Positions 9,005-11,466 of a DNA stretch of 64,000 nucleotides are shown here, one piece after another. The stretch comes from Gammaproteobacteria bacterium (GTDB lineage Bacteria; Pseudomonadota; Gammaproteobacteria; Eutrophobiales; Eutrophobiaceae). Within the stretch, counting starts at the first letter, position 1. Every line of letters starts with the position of its first letter. The stretch covers positions 96,001 through 160,000 of the forward strand of contig CAXMWX010000012.1 of the NCBI GenBank assembly GCA_963422205.2, written 5' to 3'. Under the pieces are notes generated by a model. That model saw only the letters and a list, made by a program, of their open reading frames with translations. It made no database searches and was not told the DNA's origin. The position numbers were made by a program, and so were the translations under genes.

Positions 9005-11466
9005 ATACCCACCTCTACCACCTTCATCGTATCGTTGCCGAAAATATCCACCACCTTGACGGCGACCTTGCGACGTCCGGGCGCACACTCCCTGGCAGTG
9101 CTTTGCAGTTCCAGTGAACGGTCTTTGCGAGTACGGAAAGATTGCCATTCGTTCTCGAACACATAATCCCCCGTCCAGACTGTTGACCAATCCCCCGTTT
9201 CCTCATTGTGCACAGGGATCATCTCCCGTTTGCTCTCGTAATCAAAATCCACCGACCAGTAATCCACCCAGTCCGTCCAGTGCCCGGTCAGGGCTTCCCG
9301 GCTCACCATCCCGCCCTTATCCTTGCTGACTTTAATGATCTGCCCCTGCTCCACCACGATCTTGCTGCCCTTGTTTTTCAGCGATGCCTCCACATTGGCG
9401 ATGGAGTCCTGGGAATAAAAAACCGAAAAATCCGTCAACTCCACCGCAACGGTATGACCTTTAATATGCGGTTTCACCTCGATATAGGACACATCATGGA
9501 ACACCACCTGGTTCTTCTCCACCGCCCGCTTGTCAAACACATCACGCGGTATGTACTTCAAGGCCAGATCAATGCCCTTGTCCGAGGCTTCATCCAGGAT
9601 ATTCGGAAACAGCCCCATCTCGAACTCAAAAGCAAGCACATCGACCCGGGTGATATGATTTTTGCGGCATTCCAGGATAATCTCCTCAACAAACAGGCGC
9701 GTCACCGGCAGGTTCACCGGGCCGACAGCCACCAGCCGCCCGGCCTTTTTGCCGTGAAAGGTCTTAAAGCCGGTCACCGGTTCGGCGCGATAAGCACGCA
9801 GGATGAGATCCAGAAAAGCCGCTTCCTTCTCTTGCAGTTGTTTTTGTTTTTCCGCCGCACGCAGGTTCGGATTCACACCTGCCTGCCGCGCAGCGGCCTC
9901 GTCCCATTTTCGCAATCCGTCCTTTGCAGATTCACGTTTTAGCCACTCTCTGCCAAAGCCGGTTTTTAAATGCTTTTCCCTTGCCACGGCTTCCTGGCGA
10001 CTGTTGAAATACTCATAATGAATGACCGCCACCGGCTTATGTCTTTTTGTCCAGTCCACGCGACCCTGCTTGTGCTCTTCCCAACGCCTTGACAAATCAT
10101 TCGTTTGGCCGACATAAAAACCATCGTTTTCACATGCGATCACATACACGTAAAAAAGCGGATGCGGTGCCTGCCCCTGCGCTGCAAGCAGGCGGGCAGG
10201 CAGGCCGATATAATGTTGCCGTTCATATTTGCCGAGATTCAGGATTTCAAAAGCACGCCAGGGTCTGCGCTCTGCCTTTAGCTGCCGTTGCACGCCGATC
10301 AACCGCTTGCGCGTGGTGTGGATGGCGAATTTGCCCAGGTCTGAGCCAATCCACTTGCGCCCCAGCTTCTCGGCCACGGCACAGGTGGTGCCGGAACCAC
10401 AGAAAAAATCCGCGACCAGATCGCCCTCGTTGGAGGAGGCTTTGATAATGCGCTCGAGTAATTTTTCCGGCTTTTGGGTGGGGTAGTTGACTCTTTCCTT
10501 AGCCACCGGATTTATAAATGGAACTAGCCAAACATCACTTAATGGTTTGCCTTTCGTTGCTACGTAGTGAACTTGATATTTGCCAGAGGCAATCATCTTT
10601 TTCACTTTTGGATTTTCTTTATCATAAACTACCAATCCGTTGCTTCCATAGCCGCCGCCAATCAAGTATCCCTTTTCATATTTTTCTTTTAAATTATCAG
10701 TAATGAATCTTTGTTGATTGAAACTATGATTTTGGCTTTTAGCATAAAAATATATAACATCATGATTTTTTTGATACGCTTTACTCGGAGATGTCCATTT
10801 TTCGTAGTGCCATATGATTTCATTCTTGAGAGCATGTTTCCCAAACACCTCATCCATCACCAGCCGCAGCAAACCATTCACCCGCCAGTTGCAATGCACA
10901 TAGATGCTGCCATCCTCGGCCAGCAGGTCGCGCATCAGGATCAGCCGCTCGTAGATCATGGCGATAAAGCTGTCCTGCCCATGCCCCCAGGTGTCGCGGT
11001 AGGCGATTTCTTCCAGGATATTAGGTTGCTTGGTAAAGGTGTCCTCGCCGATGGCGATGTCCATAGAAAAATCCGCGCCCACATCAAAGGGCGGGTCAAT
11101 ATAAATCAGCTTGACGCCGCCCTGCTTCTCAATCGCTTCGCGCATCGGGCCGTTTTTAAGCGACGACAGGATCAACTTGTTATCGCCCCAGATGAGCTTG
11201 TTCGTCCAGCCTAATCGCTGCCGGCCCGTCGCCGGATCTAACCAGTCACTTTGCATTGTTACATCCTTTTCCGCCCGCGGCTCATCCACATGCTCAATGG
11301 TCTGAAACGGCAGCACCACATGACACACCTCATTGCTCTTGCCATTCCAGAGAAGCTCCACCTCCCGCTTGTCCTCAAACAACACAAAGCGGTAGTGCTC
11401 CGGCAGCGGCCTGCCCGCATCCAGACAGCGAATAATGTCTTGCTTTTCATTGTCGGTGAGTTTCAT
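9001..11466 (-). CDS. mod: Type III R-M Mod DNA methyltransferase (beta class) with in-frame GIY-YIG insertion
   Basis: IYIDPPF (motif IV), YPTQKPE, DFFCGSGTT (motif I); inserted FYVYVI..FYVGQT..R..EH...E domain. Confidence 0.9.
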   Translation of the reverse strand: MKLTDNEKQDIIRCLDAGRPLPEHYRFVLFEDKREVELLWNGKSNEVCHVVLPFQTIEHVDEPRAEKDVTMQSDWLDPATGRQRLGWTNKLIWGDNKLILSSLKNGPMREAIEKQGGVKLIYIDPPFDVGADFSMDIAIGEDTFTKQPNILEEIAYRDTWGHGQDSFIAMIYERLILMRDLLAEDGSIYVHCNWRVNGLLRLVMDEVFGKHALKNEIIWHYEKWTSPSKAYQKNHDVIYFYAKSQNHSFNQQRFITDNLKEKYEKGYLIGGGYGSNGLVVYDKENPKVKKMIASGKYQVHYVATKGKPLSDVWLVPFINPVAKERVNYPTQKPEKLLERIIKASSNEGDLVADFFCGSGTTCAVAEKLGRKWIGSDLGKFAIHTTRKRLIGVQRQLKAERRPWRAFEILNLGKYERQHYIGLPARLLAAQGQAPHPLFYVYVIACENDGFYVGQTNDLSRRWEEHKQGRVDWTKRHKPVAVIHYEYFNSRQEAVAREKHLKTGFGREWLKRESAKDGLRKWDEAAARQAGVNPNLRAAEKQKQLQEKEAAFLDLILRAYRAEPVTGFKTFHGKKAGRLVAVGPVNLPVTRLFVEEIILECRKNHITRVDVLAFEFEMGLFPNILDEASDKGIDLALKYIPRDVFDKRAVEKNQVVFHDVSYIEVKPHIKGHTVAVELTDFSVFYSQDSIANVEASLKNKGSKIVVEQGQIIKVSKDKGGMVSREALTGHWTDWVDYWSVDFDYESKREMIPVHNEETGDWSTVWTGDYVFENEWQSFRTRKDRSLELQSTARECAPGRRKVAVKVVDIFGNDTMKVVEVGI
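9878..10204 (-). mobile_element. 327-bp in-frame insertion encoding a GIY-YIG nuclease, with 10-bp terminal inverted repeats
   Basis: CCTGCCTGCC at 9878-9887 and GGCAGGCAGG at 10195-10204; excision joins ATC GG|T GTG AAT, giving YIGVNPNL in frame. Confidence 0.75.

Follow-up and report, generated by a model that had tools for sequence, protein, structure and literature searches.

An in-frame GIY-YIG nuclease cassette with pairing DNA ends in a type III-like DNA methyltransferase gene, and its relatives in unrelated host genes

The systems which come closest to the element described here are two kinds of nuclease-bearing inserts that keep the reading frame of their host gene. As far as its accessible text goes, the account of ShiLan presents a frame-preserving, non-splicing homing insert in the DNA methylases of actinophages (Arsenault, Gosselin, Gogarten 2025; PMC11855218). 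An older account, considered here by its accessible part, describes a GIY-YIG domain that belongs to the Slx1 clade inside the HsdR protein MCA0838 of Methylococcus capsulatus, which is missing from an 80%-identical homolog; its authors suggested a recent insertion and possible parasitism and presented the protein as a unique case (Dunin-Horkawicz, Feder, Bujnicki 2006; PMC1564403). The present analysis concerns an insert of 327 bp that encodes a GIY-YIG domain in frame within the gene of a type III-like DNA methyltransferase (Mod). The gene lies in a stretch of 64,000 nucleotides from a gammaproteobacterial contig (assembly GCA_963422205.2, contig CAXMWX010000012.1, positions 96,001 to 160,000), which as a whole is referred to as the window. 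Overall, the insert and its relatives are best explained, with a probability of roughly 0.75, as a selfish family of translated, non-splicing nuclease cassettes which spreads by nuclease-promoted gene conversion and on rare occasions reaches new sites.

Short palindromic repeats form a further point of reference. Rickettsia palindromic elements, reportedly described by Ogata et al. in 2000, are free of any enzyme and occur in multiple copies within one genome. RAYT and the TnpA of IS200/IS605 are HUH enzymes expressed from free-standing genes, and repetitive extragenic palindromes (REPs) are intergenic and abundant.

The cassette in the window and the empty alleles of its host

The features of the host gene and of the cassette are as follows.

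9001-11466, minus strand: gene of the type III-like DNA methyltransferase (Mod, protein P0001), host of the cassette; the translated open reading frame (ORF) is stop-free and has 821 aa including the insert.
10315-11115, minus strand: N6/N4 methyltransferase domain of the host (PF01555).
9878-10204, minus strand: GIY-YIG cassette of 327 bp or 109 codons, lacking a start and a stop of its own, from GG/C (codon position 3) to GG/T (codon position 2).
10195-10204, minus strand: left terminal inverted repeat CCTGCCTGCC, read as (G)LPA; family consensus CCTGCCTGCGCCGCG.
9878-9887, minus strand: right terminal inverted repeat GGCAGGCAGG, read as RQAG, reverse complement of the left one; family consensus CGCGGCAGGCAGG.
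9955-10155, minus strand: GIY-YIG catalytic domain (PF01541), residues 438-504 of the fusion protein.
10177-10182, minus strand: left arm GCGCAG of the second helix of the closing stem, element positions 23-28, from the fold of the single-stranded DNA.
9888-9893, minus strand: right arm CTGCGC of the same helix, element positions 312-317, from the same fold.
10169-10201, minus strand: local hairpin in the left end, GCCTGCCC (10169-10176) with GGGCAGGC (10194-10201), read from the sequence.

In gene sense the junctions read TAT ATC GG/C CTG CCT GCC ... CGG CAG GCA GG/T GTG AAT, where the slash, here and below, marks the insertion boundary, and the two terminal repeats match at 10/10 bp. The encoded peptide (LPARLL...AAARQAG) is free of methionine and of stop codons. 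Given that the reading frame lacks both start and stop and that its length is divisible by three, translation is expected to add it to the host protein as an additional surface domain. Pfam assigns the GIY-YIG family (PF01541) with 61.6 bits within P0001 and with 65.3 bits to the insert alone, at a cut-off of 22.6, and the host domain PF01555 (N6_N4_Mtase) to residues 118-384 (172.8 bits, E 1.3e-50). The reading made from the letters alone, which had placed an in-frame GIY-YIG insert with inverted-repeat ends and a local hairpin at these positions, was accurate in coordinates, ends, frame, domain and hairpin. Its alternative delimitation, an element of 325 bp with a GG duplication, is ambiguous: it can be applied to the window copy, and the other copies do not exhibit a consistent duplication.

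Scans of the cassette with Pfam and NCBIfam detected GIY-YIG as the only family and no DDE, HUH, serine or tyrosine transposase. An intein was considered and rejected, as the insert starts with Leu-Pro-Ala, ends with Gln-Ala-Gly before Val, and contains no Hint or other splicing domain and no Cys/Ser/Thr and His-Asn junction residues; without these the cassette must stay in the mature protein. The earlier statement that the element is neither an intein nor an insertion sequence therefore stands, with splicing residues and transposase families both absent. A group I or group II intron or another known RNA element was likewise rejected, since no Rfam family matches and no conserved RNA core is present; an Rfam scan of 9400-10700 yielded only two chance-level matches (E 0.39 and 0.65), far under the gathering scores.

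When the window copy is folded as single-stranded DNA, positions 1-10 pair with 318-327 and positions 23-28 with 312-317. The folding energy of the whole element is not unusual (z -1.26), and in this fold the ends alone matter. The repeat CCTGCCTGCC occurs three times on both strands of the window, compared to 0.35 expected from 100 shuffles, one of which reached three; two of these three matches are the ends of the insert. The third is isolated at 30418-30427, with no partner repeat nearby.

Compared to the canonical unit of 282 bp described below, the window copy is an atypical long variant, with an additional hairpin stretch after LPA and a longer C-terminal helix. This local hairpin (10169-10201) encodes the extra residues RLLAAQGQA, which are absent from the copy in the Mod homolog P0041, and it resembles the reverse-oriented miniature hairpins of the family (reading LPAA..AAQAG). 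A nested remnant and a duplicated terminus are both possible origins. Two public runs that are available as contigs only contain the filled allele without any difference; the source sample may be one of them, and rare excision would escape notice in contigs. No RNA run was listed as containing the allele.

Most homologs of the host lack the insert. Among the best 120 listed Mod homologs of 8000 scored, to which the following statements refer, only two, P0001 itself and the 62% identical P0041, carry PF01541. Insert-free homologs have about 700-750 aa, and the closest listed ones (711-739 aa) are 73-80% identical across the aligned half. In an alignment of 12 sequences the 10 insert-free ones run on uninterrupted through YI/YV/FI-G-[VIL]-[NS], with most of them reading KYERQHYIGVNPNL; the empty alleles read YIGVN, extended to YIGVNPNL in close homologs. 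P0041 contains its insert at exactly the same position as P0001. An uninterrupted Mod ortholog is also present in a genome of the same family (G021), where the empty DNA site CACTACATCGG^TGTCAATGCC corresponds to CATTATATCGG-insert-TGTGAATCCG in the window. Homologous genes are thus polymorphic for presence and absence of the cassette at one site, as is the case with homing endonuclease elements.

A family of cassettes with conserved, pairing ends

Relatives of the insert are numerous. A search with the 109-aa insert against 1.84 billion representative proteins yielded 7727 matches with E<=1e-3, of which 449 had E<=1e-10. The best 150 of the 7727 matches were combined with P0001 and P0041 to a set of 152 proteins. 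In 82 of these, LPA and RQAG stand 70-125 residues apart with a modal spacing of 90 (53 pairs), from which a canonical unit of 94 aa or 282 bp follows; it reads LPAPRPG...GR[A/T]RQAG. The core motif is contained in 143 of the 152 proteins, and is internal (at least 30 host residues on each side) in 105 of them, C-terminal in 19, N-terminal in 11 and apparently stand-alone in 8. When one genome per species was scanned, three loci emerged, two of them identical (L009 and L010, a 1249-aa SNF2-type helicase ORF) and one HsdR-like (L011, 1141 aa); their cassettes read LPAPR...GRARQAG. A metagenome scan, which relied on internal peptide patterns only, found 427 relatives in 595 candidate stretches, of which the best 80 were retained (L012-L091). 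Together with L009-L011 and the window these constitute the DNA set, which includes 47 DNA-distinct cassettes with both end motifs. They are 282 nt (30 cassettes), 279 nt (4), 300 nt (4), 285 nt (2) or 297 nt (2) long, with one each of 288, 303, 309 and 336 nt and the window copy at 327 nt, and they are spread over 32 site groups.

After removal of the cassette, the hosts form 36 clusters among 131 proteins, the largest of which (82) is HsdS. The majority of hosts are restriction-modification and helicase genes. Pfam assignments of representatives include HsdS, HsdM, HsdR, type III Mod, Eco57I/MmeI-type enzymes, DUF1156 methylases, SNF2, NOV_C and Cas3-like helicases and a PD-(D/E)XK nuclease. 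In addition, cassettes were found in housekeeping-type proteins, namely trigger factor (at two sites), ArgRS, LeuRS, UvrB, TrmD and QueC, and in an NDP-hexose dehydratase. Two different cassettes at tandem sites of one HsdS-type ORF were observed in P0121 and in G234:C47:10263-10928 (L104/L120), and in P0242 an internally deleted copy of 23 aa directly precedes a full copy.

In the source genome, a DNA search found the window cassette as the sole copy, the remaining matches being at chance level (E at least 0.8). The only other GIY-YIG protein that a profile search detected in this genome (L093 1495-2265, G000:C7) was rejected as a cassette, as it is an ordinary N-terminal UPF0213-like domain of a 256-aa ORF without LPA/RQAG ends. 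The C-terminal part of this ORF contains the motif HEVAH (HExxH), and we take it to be SprT-like. No full-length unit with exact ends was found in viral contigs.

The cassette encodes a recognizable and conserved nuclease. The window copy includes the motifs FYVYV, FYVGQT, RRWEEH and REKHLK, and by regular expression motifs of these types were counted in 126, 127, 142 and 143 of the 143 cassettes, respectively. The two Tyr-containing strands, the Arg...His pair and the Glu of the RE..LK helix are what we take to be the catalytic-type residues. An AlphaFold2 model shows a pLDDT (predicted local distance difference test) of about 90 over the core and low values at both ends. In profile searches against the PDB the best structures were 1zg2 (UPF0213 protein BH0048, E 2.7e-16) and 1ywl (EF2693, E 2.8e-16), with I-TevI being distant at E 0.0047, and the top Foldseek matches were 1zg2, Slx1 (4xlg) and 1ywl. 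By sequence and by fold the cassette nuclease is hence nearest to the Slx1/UPF0213 (COG2827-like) clade. The interior shows a ratio of nonsynonymous to synonymous changes of 0.07-0.24 in four same-site pairs, with three more pairs being synonymously saturated; the nuclease is under purifying selection. A census of L009-L091, in which the nearest CCTGCCTGC...GCAGGCAGG pairs were collected and no frame was imposed, unveiled a bimodal distribution of unit sizes, with miniature units of 22-66 nt and full-length units of 279-354 nt. All 46 full-length units are multiples of three.

Nearly all of the 47 cassettes start with CCTGCCTGCGCCGCG and end with CGCGGCAGGCAGG. The 30 gapless cassettes of 282 nt have a mean pairwise identity of 65% (range 53-98%), and the information at their third codon positions amounts to 1.18 bits for the eight codons at the start and 1.32 bits for the eight at the end, as opposed to 0.51 bits in the interior. 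RNAalifold predicts a closing stem of 17 pairs (1-8:282-275, 9-11:273-271 and 14-19:267-262) and no conserved pairing in the interior. The cells of this stem are paired in 96.1% of cases, compared to 26-50% when the partners are slid by one to three columns. Two-sided changes occur in 21 stem cells versus 7.0 +/- 2.5 after shuffling, with 0 of 500 shuffles reaching 21; these shuffle counts are not probabilities, and the covariation comes from the only two pairs that vary, 16:265 (AU 13, GC 8, CG 4) and 19:262 (GC 11, AU 6, CG 3, GU 3). Pair 16:265 joins the third base of an Arg codon (16) to that of a Gly codon (265), and as the compensation takes place at synonymous sites it is not a protein constraint. 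The G-U and A-C exceptions in the closing stem show no clear strand bias.

A family of HsdR proteins, present in many loci, keeps the GIY-YIG core with both end motifs decayed (...QRTGRK..DG and ...GRNKPF), so that the LPA/RQAG ends are not needed for the fold. Such a loss would be expected of ends that serve mobility and degenerate after fixation of a copy. A retained core with both terminal motifs decayed was noted at L025, L030, L040, L046, L059, L061, L062, L070 and L091, of which L030 is HsdR by domain scan; the others share, by eye, the flanking motif ...WPVC...R..TGRK.... Such loci possibly represent a fixed or domesticated copy.

The miniature units (minis) consist of the two arms joined by a few bases and measure 30-66 bp. 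From 22 pattern matches, 15 distinct minis remained in the metagenome loci after deduplication, and 13 of these share a long ORF with a cassette. All three phases (LPAP..RQAG, PAC..AGR and CLR..RQA) and either orientation are represented, and L074 contains one mini inside another. Their lengths are multiples of three, except for a composite of 32/22 nt in L055 and a 40-nt part of the nested unit in L074. Viral contigs contained 10 more minis, each of 30 or 33 bp and at several different sites, with frames that are ambiguous due to the high G+C content. Inspection of the flanks of the minis by eye showed no consensus target motif. Genome-wide counts of the hairpin were 0 in the source genome (G000), 0 in G039 and in G234, 4 in G068 (all at one type I locus) and 3 rows in G381 (two of them overlapping), which argues against a REP-like proliferation. 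Minis may be in-place deletion remnants or units moved in trans; either way, the nested mini and the occurrence of several minis per gene show repeated insertion into the same genes.

The type I locus of G068 (L106, G068:C30:108152-111403) contains a GIY-YIG ORF of 120 aa which opens with a copy of the HsdS N-terminus (MSRIDDLIAELCPD-LPAGRQ-...). Perfect 20-nt palindromes, CCTGCCTGCCGGCAGGCAGG, are located there at the C-terminus of HsdM, in the GIY-YIG ORF and in HsdS, with lengths that are not multiples of three.

In every cassette the insertion point lies between codon positions 2 and 3. With one cassette taken per site group, the flanks contain G at -2 in 25 of 32 cases, A at -1 in 24, G at +2 in 22 and G or A at +3 in 25, which gives the site consensus GA/YGG, read as Asp/Gly, for full-length copies. 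A consistent target-site duplication was not found in the flanks of the 47 cassettes.

The most direct traces of movement come from three SNF2 helicase hosts with a cassette at the same site. There, the proportion of synonymous differences (pS) is far lower in the cassette than in the host, with 0.061 versus 0.664 for L034/L048, 0.316 versus 0.825 for L034/L058 and 0.294 versus 0.825 for L048/L058. L048 and L034 are 97-98% identical at the nucleotide level within the cassette; the identity falls to 82-89% over the nearest few hundred flanking bases and to 75-77% beyond these, which is the pattern that homing with co-conversion would leave. The idea of a palindrome-bounded small nuclease unit spreading into coding sequence without breaking the frame, as proposed from the sequence-only reading, thus fits with what the comparison found: empty alleles among Mod homologs and in G021, unrelated host genes in 36 clusters and 32 site groups, and ends that are conserved at synonymous positions. 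The outcomes that had been named there as refuting the idea did not turn up.

Mobility, mechanism and alternative explanations

That the cassette is a selfish mobile element which inserts in frame appears very probable. Homing-like gene conversion as the main route of its spread is the likelier option, judging from the SNF2 hosts. The predicted nuclease would promote the conversion of empty into filled copies of the same gene, new sites would be reached more rarely, and internally deleted, hairpin-only derivatives would accompany the cassette. What the nuclease might recognize is a more tentative matter. One possibility is that the closing stem acts in cis as its substrate, either in the donor, where it would form a cruciform, or in a heteroduplex of filled and empty strands, where it would close a loop of single-stranded DNA, with a structure-specific nuclease cutting at its base; a cut at the heteroduplex junction could tilt repair in favor of the filled state. 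Going by PDB entry titles, branched DNA is what Slx1 enzymes cut, and this substrate is favored because the domain is a bare Slx1-like core lacking a DNA-binding module. In yeast, palindromic loops are said to escape mismatch repair, as reportedly found by Nag, White and Petes in 1989. A hairpin substrate fits the covariation, the missing target duplication and the behavior of the minis; nevertheless, that the terminal hairpin is the nuclease's own substrate is a suggestion we would put forward with reserve. More doubtful still is a bolder version, in which the family would be a so far unrecognized kind of bacterial gene drive: a hairpin would enclose in its loop a nuclease ORF without start or stop, and the encoded enzyme would cut this very hairpin, bias repair to the filled state and mobilize minis in trans. 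The family would then be two-tiered, with autonomous and miniature members, and confined to coding sequence.

Several observations weigh against a selfish family spreading by gene conversion. A full-length match was present in only three of 401 genomes sampled from the phylum, one of which contains two copies in tandem within a 662-aa ORF, and cassettes are mostly single-copy per genome, so that there is no sign of proliferation within genomes. Of 29 same-site pairs, only 4 had a cassette pS of less than 0.6 times that of the host; three of these belong to one locus trio and one is HsdS, whose variable domains recombine. Four pairs showed the reverse (for example L052/L074 with 0.885 versus 0.596), and the remainder was saturated. 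Within the set of 30 cassettes with 282 nt, no two from different sites were nearly identical, the top interior identity being 77%. The consensus GA/YGG may reflect a preference of the nuclease or, alternatively, merely survival in Asp-Gly loops. The relatedness among the sequences can inflate covariation counts. In the Mod family of the window, an approximately unbiased (AU) test (p 0.52) did not reject a sister relationship between P0001 and P0041, with P0041 being on a long branch, and a single old insertion in this lineage is therefore compatible with the data. P0001 and P0041 are 77% identical in the cassette and 64% in the host protein, a contrast which is indecisive because the flanking host segments are 82-87% identical. 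Finally, a hydrolytic GIY-YIG enzyme gives no account of how the element is placed at new, non-homologous sites.

The first alternative is a domesticated fusion, in which the GIY-YIG domain would be a functional, vertically inherited and immobile part of its host, for example a cleavage module tethered to a methyltransferase. This would agree with hosts being mostly DNA-acting restriction-modification and helicase proteins, with the purifying selection on the nuclease, with the fixation-like HsdR family that retains the domain despite decayed ends, and with the AU test, which allows one old Mod insertion common to P0001 and P0041. However, trigger factor, ArgRS, LeuRS, UvrB, TrmD and QueC also serve as hosts, and this argues against a general functional fusion. 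Moreover, only two of the best 120 listed Mod homologs carry the cassette, the conservation of the ends at synonymous sites and their covariation have no rationale at the protein level, and the cassettes in the SNF2 genes are younger than these genes. As an explanation of the family, domestication is consequently improbable.

A similarly low probability is assigned to a DNA transposon or miniature inverted-repeat transposable element (MITE) that is moved in trans by an unlinked transposase and carries the GIY-YIG gene as cargo. Terminal inverted repeats, short derivatives that hold the ends only and the presence of the element at many sites would all be expected from such an element. Yet the flanks lack a consistent target-site duplication, no transposase family was detected in the cassette, and there is about one copy per genome, with the ends being absent elsewhere in the source genome. 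The covariation of the arms points to pairing and not to a shared protein-binding sequence, and the cargo is always this nuclease, in units that measure either 22-66 or 279-354 bp.

An RNA-level intervening sequence, whose terminal stem in the mRNA would allow excision and religation or a ribosomal bypass, is very improbable. The conserved closing stem with its compensatory changes and the exact coincidence of the ends with the insert boundaries are in line with it. On the other hand, all 46 full-length units have lengths divisible by three and stay open in the frame of their host, which RNA removal would not need. The interior shows the evolution of a coding sequence, without a conserved RNA core and without any Rfam match, minis occur in both orientations, and the G-U and A-C exceptions lack a clear strand bias. 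A chance palindrome or an assembly artefact of one contig, to which the shortness of the perfect repeat in the window (10 bp) might point, can practically be dismissed, as 46 other DNA-distinct cassettes, taken from independent assemblies, have these ends as their boundaries and two public runs, possibly including the source sample, contain the identical filled allele. Of the three mechanisms which the sequence-only reading had offered, homing thus received direct support in the SNF2 host family, whereas RNA excision is disfavored and so is domestication as a general explanation.

The host operon and comparison with known systems

Two neighbors of mod provide the operon context.

7637-9040, minus strand: AAA_15/AAA_21 ATPase gene, downstream of mod.
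4402-7080, minus strand: ResIII-type helicase of 892 aa (PF04851), presumed Res subunit.

Together with PF01555 in P0001, the 892-aa ResIII protein on the same strand constitutes a Mod and Res-type pair. The order after mod is the ATPase, an ORF of 193 aa without any Pfam match and then the helicase. An ATPase of the OLD/AbiEii-like kind together with the 193-aa ORF between mod and res (7093-9040) is an unusual addition for a type III-like system. The N-terminal motif PF12564 (TypeIII_RM_meth) was not reported by Pfam for P0001; it is present in a different cassette host, P0123. The name type III-like was chosen because PF12564 is not reported in P0001 and because the ATPase and the 193-aa ORF separate mod from res.

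A second and unrelated nuclease cassette, DUF559/Vsr-like (PF04480 and PF18741), is inserted in frame in the Mod homolog P0050, near the position of P0001 residue 666. The proteins and loci concerned are P0050, P0213, L030:1784-5233 and L103 (G021). Besides the Mod family, the cassette was found in a DUF1156 methylase, where it is flanked by the repeated peptide PSPSDMERGPGGE, and in an HsdR that contains a GIY-YIG domain as well. A DUF559-like ORF which by eye resembles the P0050 insert adjoins the empty Mod of G021. These inserts may represent a parallel family of in-frame nuclease cassettes.

If the proposed explanation is true, selfish nuclease genes would have, in addition to introns and inteins, a third mode of residing inside essential and defence genes, namely as a tolerated plug-in domain that stays in the protein. 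Puzzling GIY-YIG fusions in restriction-modification, helicase and aminoacyl-tRNA synthetase genes would then be explained without being functional domain combinations. For annotation, CCTGCCTGCGCCGCG ... CGCGGCAGGCAGG, combined with a length divisible by three, can serve as a signature. Protein engineering could profit from the cassettes as well, since they mark places in many enzymes at which an insertion is tolerated. A question raised by them is whether a minimal Slx1-like nuclease recognizes the hairpin at the ends of its own gene; this would give a concrete substrate to the UPF0213 proteins, for which we know of no function.

The phenomenon is widespread and has apparently escaped notice for the most part. 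Full-text literature searches, which left out most subscription journals and supplements, returned no description of this family, so that an earlier account elsewhere is possible. The proposal of a new class of element is to be tempered in light of the single case from 2006 (PMC1564403) and the HNH element ShiLan from 2025 (PMC11855218), as far as the accessible parts of these two papers show. As described there, ShiLan resembles the cassette in being a non-splicing methylase insert that keeps the host frame open and belongs to neither the inteins nor the introns; its evolution is homing-like, and a position looped out from the host fold is predicted for it. Its HNH nuclease is, however, encoded in another frame, with a GTG start and a TAA stop of its own (PMC11855218). 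The cassette differs from ShiLan, as presented in that accessible text, by its host-frame GIY-YIG domain without start or stop, by a pairing inverted repeat, by its minis and by dozens of host families, and the terms 'inverted repeat', 'palindrom' and 'GIY-YIG' are absent from the text of PMC11855218. The insert of MCA0838 probably belongs to the same family as the window cassette, judging from a comparison of descriptions only; in its accessible part, the account of this protein (PMC1564403) does not mention terminal repeats, nucleotide conservation, a family, further hosts or a mechanism.

Like the cassette, inteins occupy conserved genes in frame as selfish DNA and are translated along with their host; their spread by homing, in which the flanks are co-converted, would be a further parallel. 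They do not have a terminal DNA hairpin, whereas the cassette has no splicing domain, begins with Leu and ends with Gly. I-TevI and the Seg proteins have the GIY-YIG catalytic fold in common with it, and their selfish spread by gene conversion would be another shared trait; unlike the cassette, which is a bare core of about 94 aa, they possess start and stop codons and long DNA-binding domains. The mini hairpins behave comparably to Rickettsia palindromic elements and in-frame MITE-like repeats; here, in contrast to the Rickettsia elements, an autonomous form carries a nuclease and about one copy is present per genome. REP/RAYT and IS200/IS605 likewise couple a small nuclease with short, GC-rich repeats that form hairpins and are probably the DNA on which it acts. 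There, the enzyme stands apart from the repeats, whereas the GIY-YIG enzyme is located inside the loop of the hairpin and the whole element is intragenic. The cassette is best regarded as a non-splicing, in-frame element of homing type which combines features of homing endonuclease genes with those of in-frame palindromic repeats.

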